Made by a program: the position numbers and the translations under genes. A DNA stretch of 64,000 nt, taken from NCBI GenBank assembly GCA_900544965.1, contig UQXE01000003.1, positions 15,120-79,119 on the forward strand, in the 5' to 3' direction. The notes under the pieces are model-generated. The model saw nothing but the letters and a program-made list of their open reading frames with translations, was not told the origin of the DNA and made no database searches. How positions within the stretch are numbered: the first letter of the stretch is position 1; the number at the start of each line of letters is the position of its first letter. Origin of the DNA: an uncultured Eubacteriales bacterium. GTDB taxonomy: Bacteria; Bacillota; Clostridia; Christensenellales; CAG-138. Of this stretch, positions 7,712 through 63,453 are shown piece by piece.

Positions 7712-9511
7712 TCAGGCGCACCTCTCAGATCCGCTGCCATTGAGCCACTCGGACTGAGCGTCCCACATCTCGCGGTAAAGGCCGTTATTCTGCATAAGCT
7801 CATCATGCGTCCCCAGCTCCGCCAGCTCCCCTGAATCCATTACGGCAATCCTGTCGGCTATGCGGCACGATCCCAGTCTGTGGGTAACTATTATGGCGGT
7901 ATTCTCTTTGGCTATCTCAGCAAACTTTTTATACACCCTGGTCTCCTCCAGCGGATCGATCGCCGCGGTAGGCTCATCCAGCACGATAAGGTCATGGTTT
8001 CTGAACAGGCCCCGCGCAATCGCAATCCTCTGCCATTGGCCTCCCGATACATCCACGCCGTCAAATTCCTTTGAAAGCATCGTATCAAGGCCTTTTGGAT
8101 AGCTTTCCCCCTGTATGTCAACGTCGCCCTGCTCCGCCGCTTTCTCAATCCCTTCCGCCTTTCTCAGGTCCGCTATATGTATATTTCGCTCAAGCGTCAT
8201 CTTATATCTTCCAAAGTCCTGGAATACCGCGGAAGTATTTTTAAACATAGCGTTGGGGTCCGCTTCCCTGGAATCCACCCCGCCGATGCTTACAGCTCCT
8301 GACGTCGGCGTGTAAAGGCCCATCAGCAGCTTTACAAGCGTGGATTTCCCCGCTCCGTTTGTGCCTACGACCGCAAGCGTCTCTCCTGGGCGTATTGTCA
8401 GGCTGACGCCTCTTATGCTCTCCTTCTCACTGCCTGGATATGTAAACCTCACATCCTTCAGCTCAATCCCACGATCAACCTCGACCTTCTTATCGCCCTC
8501 CCTCTCCTGCATCTCCAGCAGCCTGATAAGGTTTACCGCGGCGCCCTTTTCCTGGAGGGCGGAACCCACGTTCTGCACGATCATCTCCTCCATCATGCCG
8601 AAAAGCCATCCTATGCTGGCAAATACCGCGGCGAACTGGCCGGCCGCAATGTCTCCTGATAGCAGCGCAGTGACCAGCAGGTAGAGCAGAAAGCCGTAGG
8701 CGATAAGGGTGAGCGCCTTCATCAACAGCTCAATTATGCCCGATTTGCGCTCGGCGCGCCATTTCTCCTTATTCAGCAGCCCTATGCTTTCCCTGTATAG
8801 CTTTCTATAAAAGGTGAATGCTCCTAACAGCCGTGTTTCCTTGAAAAATTGCCTGTCCCCAACACATTTTTCATAGTGCTCGACGCGCCTGCGCGAAGGG
8901 GCGGATTTTTCCTCCAGCTCGGAAAACGCTTTAACCTTGACTATCTGGCCAAGGAGCACGGGAATGAATACTATTATTGGCGCAATCCCCAGTATTGGCT
9001 TAAGCGTATACAGGTATGCGCCCATCAATATAAAATAGGGCAGATAGCCGAATACCACCAACAGCAACAGTACAACAAGGACCGAACCGTTCGTCGCGCC
9101 GACTTCAGCCTTATTTATCGCGTCCAGCATGGACGGATCCTCAAAGGCGGTCACCGGCAGCTTTTTCACCTTTTTATGGATGTGGGGCAGTATGGAGCTT
9201 TCACACCTTCTCCACAGGTCCGGCAGCCACAGGTTAACAGCCCCATTTAGTAACGGCGTTGCGAGAACAATGGCAAGCACGCCAAGGAACCACAGGATTG
9301 GCTCTGTGTAGCTGCCGCTTCCTACAGCCATTTCAACGGATGTAAACAAATTCGCCGTTAGAATTGTCTGTCCAACCATCAAAGCCATCATCAGCAGCGT
9401 TACAAGCATTATAGAAAACGTAACCTTCTTGTTTTCCTTAAAAAGGTATGGGGTAAAGCTTTTTATAACCTTGTATACCGATACGTTTTTTTGATCCGCG
9501 GCAGTTTTCAT
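7712..9511 (-). CDS. ABC exporter, fused permease/ATPase subunit (heterodimer partner 2)
   Basis: 599 aa. N-terminal TM domain. Walker A GTNGAGKST, signature VSGGQWQRIAIAR, Walker B LIVLDEPTAAID. Confidence 0.9.
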   Translation of the reverse strand: MKTAADQKNVSVYKVIKSFTPYLFKENKKVTFSIMLVTLLMMALMVGQTILTANLFTSVEMAVGSGSYTEPILWFLGVLAIVLATPLLNGAVNLWLPDLWRRCESSILPHIHKKVKKLPVTAFEDPSMLDAINKAEVGATNGSVLVVLLLLVVFGYLPYFILMGAYLYTLKPILGIAPIIVFIPVLLGQIVKVKAFSELEEKSAPSRRRVEHYEKCVGDRQFFKETRLLGAFTFYRKLYRESIGLLNKEKWRAERKSGIIELLMKALTLIAYGFLLYLLVTALLSGDIAAGQFAAVFASIGWLFGMMEEMIVQNVGSALQEKGAAVNLIRLLEMQEREGDKKVEVDRGIELKDVRFTYPGSEKESIRGVSLTIRPGETLAVVGTNGAGKSTLVKLLMGLYTPTSGAVSIGGVDSREADPNAMFKNTSAVFQDFGRYKMTLERNIHIADLRKAEGIEKAAEQGDVDIQGESYPKGLDTMLSKEFDGVDVSGGQWQRIAIARGLFRNHDLIVLDEPTAAIDPLEETRVYKKFAEIAKENTAIIVTHRLGSCRIADRIAVMDSGELAELGTHDELMQNNGLYREMWDAQSEWLNGSGSERCA

Positions 9512-15068: not shown

Positions 15069-15127
15069 TTAAAAACCCTCCGTAAGAAGCTAATAAACGA
15101 TTATACAGCTAGTAAGATCAAATCGTA

Positions 15128-55111: not shown

Positions 55112-55423
55112 ATGAAGTTAGTTTATCCGGTAGTATTTACTGGACTTGATGACGGCTATATGGCATATGTGCCGGACTTGGAAATAAATACGCAAGGTAA
55201 CGGCCTTGCGGAAGCGATCGAAATGGCGCGCGATGCCATTGGTATTATGGGCATTGATATGGAGGATGATAATAAGCCCATTCCGGAACCGTCTGACTTA
55301 TCACAGATTTTTTATGGAATGAATGAAATAGTATCTATTATAGATATTGATTTAACAGCGTATAGGCGTGCAAACGAGCAGCGAACAGTACGGCGAAATG
55401 TATCCCTCTGCCCTCCTGGCTAA
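55112..55423 (+). CDS. hicB: HicB-family antitoxin, N-terminal domain only (C-terminal RHH part is in another frame up to 55503)
   Basis: MKLVYPVVFTGLDDGYMAYVPDLEINTQGNGLAEAIEMARDAI is the HicB N-terminal fold. The shifted frame continues as LPSWLNVEAEKAGINVSAVLQTALKKEL, a ribbon-helix-helix-type tail. Confidence 0.7.
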   Translation: MKLVYPVVFTGLDDGYMAYVPDLEINTQGNGLAEAIEMARDAIGIMGIDMEDDNKPIPEPSDLSQIFYGMNEIVSIIDIDLTAYRRANEQRTVRRNVSLCPPG

Positions 55424-55694: not shown

Positions 55695-58600
55695 ATTTCA
55701 ATCCACGCACCCCACACGGGGTGCGACCACTCGTCACTGTCGTTTTACCGCTGCTGCCAATATTTCAATCCACGCACCCACACGGGGTGCGACTTGAGCC
55801 GTCCTATTCAATCCACGCACCTGACTGATTTCAATCCACGCACCCACACGGGGTGCGACCATCAATGCGGGCGTACGCATGTCAAGTCGCAGTATTTCAA
55901 TCCACGCACCCCACACGGGGTGCGACGTTGTACCCATAGTTGTGTCATAATATACCCATAATTATTTCAATCCACGCACCCCACACGGGGTGCGACTCCG
56001 CAAAGATATAACGATTGATTCATCTTTAGCTATTTCAATCCACGCACCCCACACGGGGTGCGACTGCGCGACATAATCCAAAAGACATGCATAGTACCCG
56101 AATTTCAATCCACGCACCCCACACGGGGTGCGACCGGCATGCCGCGTGGGAGGCCGTAATGGACAAATGCATTTCAATCCACGCACCCCACACGAGGTGC
56201 GACAGGATATCGGCTTAAATTGGATTTTACAGAGGTAATTTCAATCCACGCACCCCACACGGGGTGCGACGGCACTCAGCCTTACCATTGCGGCCAGGCT
56301 GAGATATTTCAATCCACGCACCCACACGGGGTGCGACCCAACAACCCCGACTTAGCCATAAAAACATTTACATTTCAATCCACGCACCCACATGGGGTGC
56401 GACCTTGCGTACAATATCGTGCATAGCTGGTCAGATGCTATTTCAATCCACGCACCCACATGGGGTGCGACCCATCCCCGTGGAGCAGGCGCGGGAGTTG
56501 GTACAAGGCATTTCAATCTATGCACCCACACGGGGTGCGACGGTGATTATATCACATGCCTCTAGAGATTGCAAATCATTTCAATCCACGCACCCACACG
56601 GGGTGCGACCTTCTGGACCGCTTGAATAATAGATATAGGGTCCCATTTCAATCCACGCACCCCACACGGGGTGCGACAGAACAACACATACAGGCTTAAT
56701 GCAATCGACAAAAAATTTCAATCCACGCACCCACATGGGGTGCGACGCGCATCCCCACGTATGGGGGCAAGCTCGTCGAATTTCAATCCACGCACCCACA
56801 TGGGGTGCGACAATTTAAGTGATATGCGCAAAGCTGATGCGATGGATTTCAATCCACGCACCCACATGGGGTGCGACACGCACTGTATTGCGGCTACCCC
56901 GCGTCACTCGACATTTCAATCCACGCACCCACATGGGGTGCGACCCCTTTCATCGTGGACAGCCACTCTAATGCTTTGAATTTCAATCCACGCACCCACA
57001 TGGGGTGCGACGGGGCGTTTTTCGCCCCTCTGGTGCATATTTTGCCAATTTCAATCCACGCACCCACATGGGGTGCGACAATTTAAGTGATATGCGCAAA
57101 GCTGATGCGATGGATTTCAATCCACGCACCCACATGGGGTGCGACAGCGGGCGCGTAGTTGATATCTACGCGCCTGTCAATTTCAATCCACGCACCCACA
57201 TGGGGTGCGACGAGGCCAACACGGGGGATAAGGTGTTTTTGGCGGATTTCAATCCACGCACCCACATGGGGTGCGACGCTTTAGCGTTAATAAGGTCTTA
57301 GTGATCGCACCGAATTTCAATCCACGCACCCACATGGGGTGCGACACCTAATGGCCGACGCAAGTTTAATGATAAGCGCCATTTCAATCCACGCACCCAC
57401 ATGGGGTGCGACGGTTTTACCGCTCCGCTAAATCGCCAGCGCAGGCAATTTCAATCCACGCACCCACATGGGGTGCGACTTACATAGCTAACGAGGGATT
57501 GAGTATCCTTGAATTTCAATCCACGCACCCACATGGGGTGCGACAGACAGGAGGCCGCAAAATCCAGCCTTGCCAAATATATTTCAATCCACGCACCCAC
57601 ATGGGGTGCGACGCTTTGTGACTGTCACAATCTGTCACAACTGTCACATTTCAATCCACGCACCCACATGGGGTGCGACATAAGTTCTCCTGGTCGCAAT
57701 CCCGTTGCGACCAATTTCAATCCACGCACCCACATGGGGTGCGACCGGTAAAACTTGTATGTTCTGCCTTCAGCGTTAACATTTCAATCCACGCACCCCA
57801 CACGGGGTGCGACCAACGCTATATTGCTCTGTGACCTCGGGCAGCATATTTCAATCCACGCACCCCACACGGGGTGCGACCGCCTAATCCCTGCGCCTTC
57901 AAGGCGGTAACAGAATTTCAATCCACGCACCCCACACGGGGTGCGACGGGATTTGCCAGCCATTCGGCTCGCTCTCATCTCCTATTTCAATCCACGCACC
58001 CCACACGGGGTGCGACATGTATAGATGATTTGGTGAAAGAGGCTTAATATATTTCAATCCACGCACCCCACACGGGGTGCGACCACAATGGCCGCAAGTA
58101 CCAGGCGCAGCCAAGATAATTTCAATCCACGCACCCCACACGGGGTGCGACGTCCGGCAGAGCGTCGGAGGCTATTATCACAACAGATTTCAATCCACGC
58201 ACCCCACACGGGGTGCGACTCCGATATTCCAATCGGCCACAATCTTTTTAACATTTCAATCCACGCACCCCACACGGGGTGCGACGGAGGATAGATATGT
58301 TTATCAGGAGACTATATTAATTTCAATCCACGCACCCCACACGGGGTGCGACTCTGTGATACGGTTGGCTCCGGCATACTTATAAAATTTCAATCCACGC
58401 ACCCCACACGGGGTGCGACTCTGTTGCAACCAAATTTCAGCTATCTCCTTTTGAATTTCAATCCACGCACCCCACACGGGGTGCGACTTCAAAATAGCCT
58501 AGAACTCTAATGCACGAGCCGATTTCAATCCACGCACCCCACACGGGGTGCGACGAAAATGTAGCCTCTGACCTGATGGACAACTTCCCAATTTCAATCC

Positions 58601-61600
58601 ACGCACCCCACACGGGGTGCGACGAGACAGGCATATGCGATCAATATAAGATAACATGGAATTTCAATCCACGCACCCCACACGGGGTGCGACGAGTTCT
58701 TTCTCACCGTTAATCTCAGTGGACGGGAATTTCAATCCACGCACCCCACACGGGGTGCGACTCAGGCATTCGCCTTCTTTTTGCTTCAGCTCGCATTTCA
58801 ATCCACGCACCCCACACGGGGTGCGACTGGGCCGTGGACGATCCAAGGGCCTCCGCAATAATTTCAATCCACGCACCCCACACGGGGTGCGACGGGTACC
58901 ATCCACCGTCCTGGATGGTACCAAATAATTTCAATCCACGCACCCCACACGGGGTGCGACGTGGCGCTGATCGCGCTTACGGCGTGGTGCGGCGATTTCA
59001 ATCCACGCACCCCACACGGGGTGCGACAAGGAAATGCAAAAAGCCTATGGATATATAGGTATTTCAATCCACGCACCCCACACGGGGTGCGACTGTCACA
59101 CCATTAAAATTGGGGAGACAGGCCACAAGATTTCAATCCACGCACCCCACACGGGGTGCGACGGCGGAGCGGTAAAACCATCGGCCGTTAACATAGGCAT
59201 TTCAATCCACGCACCCCACACGGGGTGCGACTTTATATCGCCAACGAGGGACTGAGTATCCTCGAATTTCAATCCACGCACCCCACACGGGGTGCGACGG
59301 TTCTTACCCGAGGGCGCTGTGGTAGGTACAGTGCATTTCAATCCACGCACCCCACACGGGGTGCGACCGTTATATATCGACATTGTTGTCCGGAAGAAAC
59401 AAAATTTCAATCCACGCACCCCACACGGGGTGCGACTGAGTATAGCGCACTTAAAAGTACAGCGCTACAAATTTCAATCCACGCACCCCACACGGGGTGC
59501 GACACCGATAAAAAGGTTTTTACCTTAAGGATGCAAAATTTCAATCCACGCACCCCACACGGGGTGCGACTTTGGCATTGACAAGCTAATTATCATGTAG
59601 TATTAATTTCAATCCACGCACCCCACACGGGGTGCGACAACATAAAACAGCGTTAAAATATATTGAATGGCGCATTTCAATCCACGCACCCCACACGGGG
59701 TGCGACCCTCAATGACGGCACCTCCAACTGGGGCTACGCATTTCAATCCACGCACCCCACACGGGGTGCGACTGCTGTTTCACTGCTTCGGGCCGGATCG
59801 TGTCCGATTTCAATCCACGCACCCCACACGGGGTGCGACACGCAACCGTTACATCAGGATCATCAGACTACAAATTTCAATCCACGCACCCCACACGGGG
59901 TGCGACGCCTTTAAAGATAGGAGGCTTTCTGCTATTACTGCATTTCAATCCACGCACCCCACACGGGGTGCGACGTGCGCTGTATATGGTGTACATGGCG
60001 TACGCGGATAGGATTTCAATCCACGCACCCCACACGGGGTGCGACTAGCTTGATTCTCTTTGCTTTAGTGGTACTTATTATTTCAATCCACGCACCCCAC
60101 ACGGGGTGCGACTGGGTTGTCAATAAACAATTCAAAAGTCGAAAAGATTTCAATCCACGCACCCCACACGGGGTGCGACGCCGTAACGGCTGGACACGCG
60201 CCGAGTATAACCGCGATTTCAATCCACGCACCCCACACGGGGTGCGACGGCGATTTAGTTTTCCCTGTCTGGACAGATACAAGTATTTCAATCCACGCAC
60301 CCCACACGGGGTGCGACATCAGGTATTTGCATATGCCCCCAAAGAGGGGGCAATTTCAATCCACGCACCCCACACGGGGTGCGACGCGCGGATGACACCA
60401 TACCACGGCCAATGATATGCAATTTCAATCCACGCACCCCACACGGGGTGCGACGCGATAAAGACCTCATGGGCGCGCGTGATAAATATTCATTTCAATC
60501 CACGCACCCCACACGGGGTGCGACCTCTATCTGGCTTTTTTCAACGATGCGATCCGCTGATTTCAATCCACGCACCCCACACGGGGTGCGACCTGGTAAG
60601 GCGCTTGGCCTTCCGGTTGATAAACAAAATTTCAATCCACGCACCCCACACGGGGTGCGACTAGCTTCCCATGCATCCGCAAGTTTGACAAATGTATTTC
60701 AATCCACGCACCCCACACGGGGTGCGACTAGGATCCCCCCCACCCTGCGGTTCACGGGGCTCATTTCAATCCACGCACCCCACACGGGGTGCGACGGCTT
60801 TGACCGGTGTAACTGTCTATCGACCGCGCAAATTTCAATCCACGCACCCCACACGGGGTGCGACTTGTCAGCCTGTATCTCATACTCCCTCCTGATCATT
60901 TCAATCCACGCACCCCACACGGGGTGCGACCGAGCTTACGGTAAACGGGGACGGCAGCAGGCAAATTTCAATCCACGCACCCCACACGGGGTGCGACGCG
61001 CTATGTCAGACACTTATTACAACTTTGGGTATCATTTCAATCCACGCACCCCACACGGGGTGCGACCAGAAACCGACATCGAAGCTCTGATTAAGGAAGC
61101 AATTTCAATCCACGCACCCCACACGGGGTGCGACTCGTAATGCAAAAGAGATTGTAACCCACAATACGATTTCAATCCACGCACCCCACACGGGGTGCGA
61201 CGCGTTTTCAAGACAGGCGGTAATTTCCTGCCGCATATTTCAATCCACGCACCCCACACGGGGTGCGACGTCTTTCACATGGAGAGGGTGTAGTCGGCGG
61301 TAAATTTCAATCCACGCACCCCACACGGGGTGCGACGTTATAAAATACTCTGTCGTCATGAGTGTCGTAATATTTCAATCCACGCACCCCACACGGGGTG
61401 CGACACCACTCTCGGAGTCTTTTGAGTGTTTATCCTCAAGATTTCAATCCACGCACCCCACACGGGGTGCGACACCTATCCCCCGTTACATGGGACAAAA
61501 AATAACAAATTTCAATCCACGCACCCCACACGGGGTGCGACTTGTCAAGCGGTGTGGGTTGGCGTGGATTGCTTAAATTTCAATCCACGCACCCCACACG

Positions 61601-61880
61601 GGGTGCGACCCTTGGCAGTTGGTATCCGAGCCAGAGTAATAATATTTCAATCCACGCACCCCACACGGGGTGCGACGGTTATACCGCAACTCTACATCCG
61701 ACGCCCTTTGTATTTCAATCCACGCACCCCACACGGGGTGCGACTAAGGGACGGCAAAACCCTGCCCGCCGCCGCCCAATTTCAATCCACGCACCCCACA
61801 CGGGGTGCGACGACCACGCATCTCCCCGTACCCAACCGGAGGTTGGTATTTCAATCCACGCACCCCACACGGGGTGCGAC
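55695..61880 (-). CRISPR. CRISPR array, 92 repeats / 91 spacers, type I-C-like repeat
   Basis: The 33-nt consensus on the minus strand is GTCGCACCCCGTGTGGGGTGCGTGGATTGAAAT. On the plus strand the first repeat is at 55695-55727 and the last at 61848-61880. Spacers are about 33-37 nt. I assign the minus strand because of the GTCGC...ATTGAAAT polarity, the AT-rich 196-nt flank at the 61.9 kb end, and the degenerate repeats at the 55.7 kb end. Confidence 0.97.
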
Positions 61881-62076
61881 AGCAAAAACACGTAAATTGA
61901 TGCAAAAAACATCTTCACAATCAATTACTATGCATTTAATGTAATTATATCAGTTTGCTAACGCCGTTTCAACTGAGTATATATCTCAATTTACGTCTTT
62001 TCGGGTGCGAATGCAACTATAAAACCAGGATAACTATAGATTCGCGCTATTAAATTTTAAAGCATTCTATAATCAT

Positions 62077-62589: not shown

Positions 62590-63453
62590 TTATTATTTTC
62601 CCCTCTCCAGAATTGTCATATAAATTGTAACATAAATGTGAATGTATTCAATAGTTTTATTAAGAAAATAGTATGTATTACACTATTTGGCAACGCTGCT
62701 GTTTGTCGATTTTTAGGATATGTAGCTATAATCGATAAATCTGCGAGTAGTATTGACACGTTTGTTCGGCTTTGATAAAATGATTTAGAATAAACATTCC
62801 AAAGCTAGAGAAAGAAAATATATCATGTCGCATTGCAGACACCATCGTTACAAGCGTCTATTGTCCTTTGCCTTAGTTTTGTCTACCTAACCCTTTAATA
62901 TAAATAACGAACCATCCAAAACATACGGCCTTGGATGGTCTGTTAAGTGTAGCCTTTCGCACCTTGAAAACTAATATATTATTTATCTCATCCATGAAGC
63001 CAGCTGTAATAATACCTCTAGGAAGCGCAATCTCGGCAATACCAAAAAAGAAGGTTATGCAGAAAAACATACTTAACAAAGCCTATGCAACTCATCCTGA
63101 TATGAAGGATGACAATACAAATTTTGTGTCACAGTACCTGCAGGCCCAAGGCGTTCCTTGTACTGGCAAGTGGAATATATACAAAAAATCATATGGCCGC
63201 CCAAGTAACTTAAGATAATGCAAGCTTGTTTTTTGCAGCTATATCCATTATTCCTGATGTAATAGAATTTAGCGTTAGCATGGAGCCCATTCGGTATGGG
63301 GCCTATACTCATACTTAGGCTTTTTCGTATTGAACATAAATATTGAACTAGAATTAATGCCGTATTGGGCCTCAATTACTAGCTATACTCTTTCCTGTTT
63401 CAAATACAAAAAATCAGCCTTTTAATCAGGCTGATTTACATGCTTACATAACG

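Follow-up and report, generated by a model that had tools for sequence, protein, structure and literature searches.

Why would a single CRISPR array hold two spacers that spell the same ten amino acids in different synonymous codons? The question is raised by a 64,000-nucleotide stretch of DNA (hereafter the window; contig UQXE01000003.1 of assembly GCA_900544965.1, forward-strand positions 15,120 to 79,119) from an uncultured Christensenellales bacterium of the CAG-138 lineage. The window contains a type I-C CRISPR array on the minus strand (55695..61880), which array parsing resolves into 92 repeats and 91 spacers of 33-38 nt. Two of these spacers, 27 and 53, are most probably independent acquisitions from one protospacer in the holin gene of a ~39.5 kb temperate phage lineage.

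Two spacers carry synonymous versions of the same site

Spacer 27 (57480..57512, minus strand; 33 nt; TTACATAGCTAACGAGGGATTGAGTATCCTTGA) is flanked by a 32-nt variant repeat and is referred to here as allele A, while spacer 53 (59232..59265, minus strand; 34 nt; TTTATATCGCCAACGAGGGACTGAGTATCCTCGA), flanked by the 33-nt canonical repeat, represents allele B of the same site with the same protospacer adjacent motif (PAM) end. With their right ends aligned, the two spacers agree at 28/33 positions. When every pair was compared in both orientations (8190 comparisons), this was exceeded by one exact duplicate alone (spacers 17 and 21) and the next best pair reached only 20/35, so that the similarity between spacers 27 and 53 is not explained by chance.

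The five differences fall at plus-strand offsets 3, 6, 9, 19 and 30, corresponding to codon positions 3, 3, 3, 1 and 3. Comparison of the six reading frames revealed zero amino-acid changes in plus-strand frame 1 only, a frame that is open and encodes the holin motif YIANEGLSIL in both spacers. The original prediction, made from the sequence of the window, that the five differences in 33 positions are all synonymous in one frame is borne out by this comparison. Counted from the PAM, the differences occupy positions 3, 14, 24, 27 and 30, of which position 3 lies in the seed.

The spacer pair targets a conserved motif of a predicted phage holin

A degenerate pattern back-translated from the shared peptide matched 20 IMG/VR contigs and 28 contigs from GTDB genomes, none of them exactly to spacer 27 or spacer 53. 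All of these matches fall in open reading frames of ~130-177 aa carrying the motif. The three reading frames tested match PF05105 and phrog_199 'holin', with PF05105 scores of 102-139 bits against a gathering cut-off of 22.2, and PF05105 is precomputed for all holins of the phage lineage described below. In all long loci, a PG_binding_1 or NLPC_P60 protein is encoded directly upstream of the holin, as in a lysis cassette. The protospacer gene is thus a predicted Phage_holin_4_1 (PF05105) holin of 393 nt, in which the pair corresponds to nt 279-311, in agreement with the earlier proposal that both spacers sample a single protein-coding site.

Judging from the homologues compared, the pair targets the most conserved motif of this putative holin: FYIANEGLSILEN is identical in 110 of its 120 closest homologues, at an overall identity of only 59-100%. 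In the matched public contigs, the protospacer is followed by GAA or AAA (a Glu codon and the start of an Asn codon), equivalent to 5'-TTC or TTT on the strand with the sense of the CRISPR RNA (crRNA). A third spacer is directed at the same gene. Spacer 87 (61542..61576, minus strand) covers the LSSGVGWRGLLK motif, at a site 129 bp upstream of that of the pair, and is an exact 35/35 match to holin nt 148-182 in 20 phage loci.

A temperate phage lineage bears six alleles of the target site

The targeted phage was reached through spacer 87, which matched the holin gene of contig L023; near-identical relatives of this holin were then looked up in ENA/Logan assemblies. The relatives identified (P0001, P0002 and P0136-P0142) belong to one syntenic temperate phage of ~39.5 kb, which encodes a tape measure protein, baseplate J, a tail fibre, an endolysin and the holin, followed by ~4.5 kb of small genes, and whose host is an uncultured human-gut Christensenellales bacterium. 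Spacer-by-spacer and whole-array BLAST searches against GenBank phages produced chance or repeat-driven matches only, and the whole array searched against plasmids returned other I-C arrays only. Within IMG/VR, the degenerate pattern of spacer 87 had no match and the L023 holin had only a 34%-identical relative. These empty searches indicate that the targeted phage is absent from both IMG/VR and the GenBank phages, having been found only via protein-identity look-ups in ENA/Logan. A narrow metagenome scan for any mixture of alleles A and B likewise yielded no protospacer, returning only a sister array, L049.

The 35-bp site occurs in six alleles within this phage lineage, and inspection of their flanks revealed GAA (5'-TTC on the opposite strand) directly 3' of the site on the coding strand in all six, which places 5'-TTC next to the crRNA 5' end, as expected for a type I-C PAM. 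The end shared by the two spacers is therefore the PAM side, as had been predicted. Allele A, on contig L109, matches spacer 27 exactly (33/33) and is followed by a GAA PAM; in five further contigs of this phage, the site differs from the spacer at one position. Allele C is an exact match (35/35) to spacer M79 of array L049. Spacer 53 is three mismatches from the nearest lineage allele (L058-type, GAA PAM), and nearly every one of its base states is present among the six alleles. Its derivation from this same phage lineage is probable.

The phage is targeted well beyond its holin gene. At least 26 of the 91 window spacers match it with at most five mismatches, 17 on the right arm and nine on the left, in a count that covers the fetched parts of the phage, all but ~14.6 kb. 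The matching spacers extend from spacer 3 to spacer 91, and eight of them are exact. Both the newest spacer, 91 (61812..61847, minus strand), and an old one, spacer 7 (56135..56170, minus strand), are exact 36/36 matches to the same phage in L058/L059, and spacers 48, 50, 53 and 54 form a run against it.

The matched protospacers outside the holin site are flanked mostly by GAA or AAA, that is, TTC or TTT. For spacers 7, 32, 87, 91 and others, many exact protospacers (L058, L072, L073) carry AAA instead of GAA, which means either that the system accepts TTT as a PAM or that the phage has escaped at the PAM in these variants.

Array type and polarity place spacer 27 before spacer 53

The plus-strand repeat is ATTTCAATCCACGCACCCCACACGGGGTGCGAC. 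In its reverse complement, GTCGCACCCCGTGTGGGGTGCGTGGATTGAAAT, an 8-bp GC hairpin precedes a tail of 11 nt, GUGGAUUGAAAU. Type I-C repeats were taken to be 32-33 nt long, with a GC-rich hairpin and a ~11-nt tail ending in ..ATTGAAA(T/C) on the transcribed strand; in the window array, the stem predicted for GUCGCACCCCGUGUGGGGUGCGUGGAUUGAAAU has 8 bp and a tail of 11 nt (-16.6 kcal/mol, z -3.7), and the 32-nt variant repeat retains a 7-bp stem on folding. An Rfam search with the repeat brought no CRISPR-DR family to threshold. The repeat core TTTCAATCCACGC...GCGAC is common to the window array and the prototype I-C (Dvulg) array of N. vulgaris pDV. With the pDV repeat in the plus orientation of the window, the minus-strand genes cas2-cas1c-cas4-cas7c-cas8c-cas5c-cas3 lie right of the pDV array, cas2 and the leader being on that side.

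An AT-rich leader, the entry end for new spacers, is located at 61881..62050 (minus strand), and its first 150 nt are the same in six sister-strain loci except for the first base. Sister strains with identical flanks and leader agree with the window in their left-hand spacers and differ at the right-hand (leader) end. Together with the pDV layout, this polarity places the leader from 61881 onward, assigns the crRNAs to the minus strand and makes spacer 27 older than spacer 53. The variant-repeat block that contains spacer 27 (32-nt repeats, ..CCCACATGGGG..; repeats 11-12 and 16-31; 56372..57745, from array parsing) is accordingly the older of the two blocks, and the canonical block with spacer 53 the younger, as originally proposed. 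Leader-end addition is also reflected in trailer-side spacers being common to sister strains and in mismatches to the phage declining towards the leader, older spacers carrying more of them (Spearman -0.47, P=0.016). Variant repeats border spacers 11 and 16-30 and the left side of spacer 31, and canonical repeats border the variant block on both sides.

No cas genes were detected in the 64-kb window or within ~7 kb beyond its right end. The single I-C operon of the species (cas3-cas5-cas8c-cas7-cas4-cas1-cas2) sits elsewhere, with no adjoining array (L092). Members of its Cas3, Cas8c and Cas1c clusters occur in the same NCBI assemblies as the ≥90%-identity clusters of the window LysRS and of the array-flank protein. 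These linking assemblies are named Christensenellales bacterium, and the operon Cas3, Cas8c and Cas1c, the window-type LysRS and the array-flank protein were each seen on a 2,620,901-bp contig.

Several further features of the array were recorded. Spacer 2 (55794-55827) includes a partial repeat, TATTCAATCCACGCACC, and the trailer-side repeats 2, 3, 10, 13 and 14 are a mosaic of three repeat types, which points to the old end having decayed and recombined. Spacers 17 (56812-56845) and 21 (57080-57113) are identical (34/34) and lie four units apart within the variant block; either recombination between repeats duplicated the spacer or its protospacer was acquired twice. Just past the trailer end lies a HicB-like antitoxin gene (55112-55423, plus strand). 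Sister strain L070 carries an array of just 20 repeats, separated from the HicB gene by RelB and YafQ/ParE toxin-antitoxin genes. When the window itself was searched as a target, no spacer had a protospacer inside it. Spacer 78 (60931-60964) is an exact match to a 382-aa chromosomal gene beside a MacB-type transporter (L066:2356), which in sister strains is situated ~4 kb past the right end of the window; the flank of this match is ATT, which is not a PAM, and spacer 78 may represent a tolerated self-targeting spacer. Spacer 65 of array L049 matches intergenic window DNA exactly (34/34; 62703-62736, minus strand) some 800 bp beyond the leader. It has no TTC PAM in the usual orientation and has TTT on the opposite side, as for a flipped spacer.

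The same protospacer has been acquired repeatedly in separate arrays

Four acquisitions at the holin site can be told apart by their length, allele and neighboring spacers: spacer 27 (33 nt, allele A) and spacer 53 (34 nt, allele B) in the window; spacer M79 (35 nt, allele C) in array L049, an array of 84 repeats, all of the 32-nt type, in an unrelated genomic context; and a 35-nt spacer (allele D) common to sister strains L067, L069 and L071, added after spacer 63. The PAM end is common to the four, the far end differs, and all differences between alleles are synonymous. These 33, 34 and 35 nt versions with a shared PAM end are what the original prediction of PAM-anchored acquisition with a variable far end implies. 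The block of spacers 48-53 (58894..59265, minus strand) is missing in the sister-strain arrays, in which spacer 47 is directly followed by spacer 54, and it is these strains that later gained the allele-D spacer. Spacer 27 is missing as well from L067, the only sister locus covering its region. The sister lineage, where this can be checked, therefore had neither of the two window spacers and took the site anew.

Other protospacers are also represented in independent arrays with length differences of 1-2 nt. One site in the phage integrase gene has been taken as 33, 34 and 35 nt (spacer 30, L049-54 and L068-39), and the same protospacers recur in separate arrays for spacer 16 (L067-22 and L068-13), spacer 5 (L049-11) and spacer 59 (L049-37). 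Independent acquisition of several protospacers indicates that repeat sampling of the same sites is general in this system.

Under uniform sampling of PAM sites, the expectation for a four-fold coincidence at one site is ≤0.006, which indicates that the holin site is preferred at acquisition or preferentially kept. This preference is a result of the comparison with related arrays, and the pair on its own does not demonstrate it.

Weighing explanations for the spacer pair

The target gene, its PAM, the site alleles, the polarity of the array and the repeated independent sampling of the site are established by the comparisons above, and they support the original reading of the pair as essentially right. 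In the explanation that we favor, two separate Cas1-Cas2(-Cas4) acquisitions would have taken one protospacer, nt 279-311 of the holin gene, at a 5'-TTC PAM supplied by the Glu-Asn codons that follow the invariant YIANEGLSIL motif. The PAM-side cut would be fixed and the far end trimmed variably, giving rise to the 33, 34 and 35 nt versions, and the two spacers would store two synonymous alleles of a site at which the protein is constrained and the wobble bases vary. The host lineage would have been immunised repeatedly against the phage over the whole life of the array, and spacer 53 may have restored immunity to a variant that spacer 27 no longer cleaved.

Several observations weigh against this explanation or parts of it. 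An exact protospacer for spacer 53 was not found in the databases searched, and L019, an IMG/VR phage unrelated to the lineage, comes just as near to it, with three mismatches. Likewise, the L028 prophage differs from spacer 27 at two positions and has no further DNA in common with the phage. Since such unrelated phages come as close as the true lineage, the source of spacer 53 is probable and not proven. The earlier claim that the pair derives from two relatives of one mobile element stands insofar as the site is polymorphic within one phage lineage and spacer 27 has an exact match there, and is probable for spacer 53, which has none. A single same-site pair would also be expected in 12-46% of arrays with as many spacers on one phage, again under uniform PAM-site sampling, and the match between the array and the I-C operon, which is putatively its own, links the two at species level only. 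As for selection on the target, the 35-bp protospacer contains six of the 27 sites that vary in the 393-bp holin gene, a modest enrichment (P=0.03, from nine close haplotypes, in a post hoc test on related haplotypes); of these six, one lies in the seed (position 3) and the other five are PAM-distal, with no mutation in the PAM itself. With most of the variation PAM-distal and the PAM unchanged, diversifying pressure from CRISPR is possible and not shown. Finally, the block holding spacer 27 uses the repeat type of another lineage and may have entered by array recombination.

The close matches in unrelated phages raise the alternative of convergent sampling, in which two phages with no relationship beyond the invariant holin motif and its built-in PAM would have supplied the spacers. 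Conservation of FYIANEGLSILEN in 110/120 closest homologues, occurrence of the motif pattern across diverse Clostridia and one Bacillaceae (48 contigs, viral or prophage), and the proximity of L028, L019 and L002 (two to five mismatches from the spacers, with no other DNA shared with the phage; three for L019 and spacer 53) are all in its favor, as is the lack of an exact match to spacer 53 in anything searched. Yet the lineage contains an exact match to spacer 27 (L109) and is hit by at least 26 of the 91 spacers, the neighbors 48, 50 and 54 among them, and nearly all base states of spacer 53 occur among its six alleles, so that we regard convergent sampling as improbable. Far less credible still is duplication of one spacer within the array followed by mutational drift. 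The array does contain an exact duplicate (spacers 17 and 21), but drift would have had to alter the length and substitute five bases within 33 nt, leaving the repeats on either side invariant, with all five changes synonymous in a frame relevant only to the phage; the existence of allele A as such in phage DNA and the synonymous-only pattern effectively refute it.

The remaining alternatives concern how the second memory was formed and how the two came to stand in one array. Type I Cascades do not read every sixth position of the target, here positions 24 and 30, which probably leaves ~3 effective mismatches between spacer 27 and allele B. Against an allele-B phage, the mismatches of spacer 27 would lie at positions 3, 14, 24, 27 and 30, and its presence at the time of acquisition depends on the history of the array. 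The phage may have escaped by target mutation. Imperfect binding of the spacer-27 crRNA to such a variant, insufficient to clear it, might have triggered Cas3-dependent adaptation at the same site. The seed mismatch at position 3 and the run of spacers 48, 50, 53 and 54 on the same phage would suit this primed re-acquisition, and Legionella offers a documented case of type I-C priming (PMC5071653). Against it, 25 spacers lie between spacers 27 and 53, and the site has also been taken in arrays without spacer 27 (L067 and L049). A strand bias beyond PAM availability, as expected of primed adaptation, was absent among the 26 phage spacers: 21/26 are on the coding strand, as PAM availability (GAA 114 vs TTC 35 on that strand) predicts (63-77%). 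With the strand bias matching the PAM counts, nothing here requires priming, and we consider it unlikely. The idea of re-immunisation against an escape or variant lineage accordingly holds as repeated sampling of alleles, its escape component being, like priming, unproven.

About as doubtful, in our estimation, is that array recombination imported the variant block with spacer 27 from the array of another lineage, merging the memories of two hosts at a later time. The 32-nt variant is the sole repeat type of L049, which has a different context and its own spacer at the site; canonical repeats stand on either side of the variant block; and sister strains show mosaic losses and replacements of blocks. 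However, the window array has no collinear run of spacers in common with L049, the protospacers that the two share differ by 1-2 nt in length and in order, and mutation of the leader-end repeat followed by reversion or gene conversion could also generate such blocks. Independent acquisition from one phage lineage remains the explanation that we prefer for spacers 27 and 53.

Prophages are inserted in cas3 and beside a CRISPR half repeat

The same phage that at least 26 window spacers match is found integrated, as a ~39.5 kb prophage, inside cas3 of the only I-C operon of the species. Intact Cas3 has 732 aa (P0144; L092:10001-12199). In lysogens, a 314-aa N-terminal Cas3 fragment comprising the HD domain and a 470-486-aa C-terminal fragment border the prophage. 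The sites attL, attR and attB have in common a 15-bp core, GTCTTAGAGCATCAT, that corresponds to cas3 codons 296-300 (VLEHH), and beside attL lies a tyrosine integrase gene. The two halves of cas3 are found on one 132-kb contig (L082:14925 and L094:10891-10945; ENA ERZ27285961 k141_20141), and the cas3 insertion is present in dozens of independent assemblies. Mu-like random insertion, suggested by differing right-end junctions in L075, L080 and L087, was dropped in view of the common core at all three sites beside a tyrosine integrase.

A different prophage is found at the array locus of sister strain L066 (reverse complement 8100-8425). It has an unrelated integrase and CI/Cro-like genes and adjoins a half repeat, ..CCACCCACACGGGGTGCGAC, at what corresponds to the leader-proximal end of the window array, with four complete repeats left on the leader side. 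On this evidence, the arrangement looks like integration of a prophage into a I-C repeat. This second prophage is matched by window spacers 42 and 49 and by spacers 15 and 16 of L049.

These arrangements admit a tentative reading as a layered host-phage conflict of long standing, which as a whole we hold to be possible without expecting it to be correct in all its parts. The host may keep re-sampling a protein-constrained protospacer whose PAM is fixed by Glu-Asn codons, and the phage may vary only the wobble bases of the holin site. Lysogeny through the cas3 attachment site may split Cas3 and reversibly switch off interference, and the second prophage may do the equivalent by entering a CRISPR repeat. 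If this is true, the split in Cas3 would allow lysogens to carry arrays full of exact self-matching spacers.

Comparison with known systems

The closest parallel to the acquisition pattern is the type I-C system of Legionella pneumophila, in which experiments showed adaptation to add ~67-bp units at the leader end with a 5'-GAA-3' (=TTC) PAM, and one protospacer was the source of two among the 23 spacers acquired independently (Rao et al., 2016; PMC5071653). The window array has the same unit size (~67 bp), GAA PAM and leader-end addition, and repeated use of one protospacer. Unlike the Legionella case, it is a natural record in an uncultured gut Christensenellales bacterium, with different alleles of the site and spacers of 33-35 nt at it, and it lies apart from its cas operon.

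Silent variation in a targeted lysis gene has been described by Heidelberg et al. (2009; PMC2612747), who found spacers on a conserved phage lysin gene whose virome copies vary only by silent or conservative changes, and read the silent variation as evasion under protein constraint. A conserved lysis gene is targeted here too, and its protospacer varies silently. In that study virome reads were set against one spacer, whereas the window array itself stores two alleles and related arrays two more, and the gene encodes a holin, not a lysin.

The prophage insertions have precedents in which integration disables CRISPR-Cas. The arrangement in L066 resembles that of PhiAP1.1, which integrates into the type II-A repeats of S. 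pyogenes (Varble et al., bioRxiv 10.1101/2020.10.09.333658), in a study where I-C loci showed no insertion of this kind; here the repeat is of type I-C. For the cas3 insertion, the one precedent found is a prophage that interrupts cas3 at the CRISPR2 locus of S. agalactiae (Croucher et al., 2016; PMC4774983). Unlike both precedents, the present insertions are in another host clade, occur as both kinds in one species and are known from sequence alone, and the array holds many exact spacers against the cas3-integrating phage.

Significance for Christensenellales and their phages

Given these precedents, the spacer pair is a good specimen of a known kind and not a new phenomenon: it is a clear new example, in a new host, of same-protospacer re-acquisition and of silent variation in a lysis gene. 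It illustrates CRISPR memory following silent-site variation in a phage gene that is unable to change its protein, PAM-anchored type I-C acquisition with a loose far end, and protospacers taken over and over by separate lineages. It also provides a host-phage pairing for an uncultured, common member of the human-gut Christensenellales, and the six natural target alleles, together with the four spacer alleles, are usable for measuring the mismatch tolerance of type I-C systems. The lead of widest interest is the cas3-integrating phage. Shutdown of the cas3 type has been noted once before, in S. agalactiae, and never studied; if functional, the insertion described here would constitute a reversible, integration-based shutdown of the very immunity that targets the phage.

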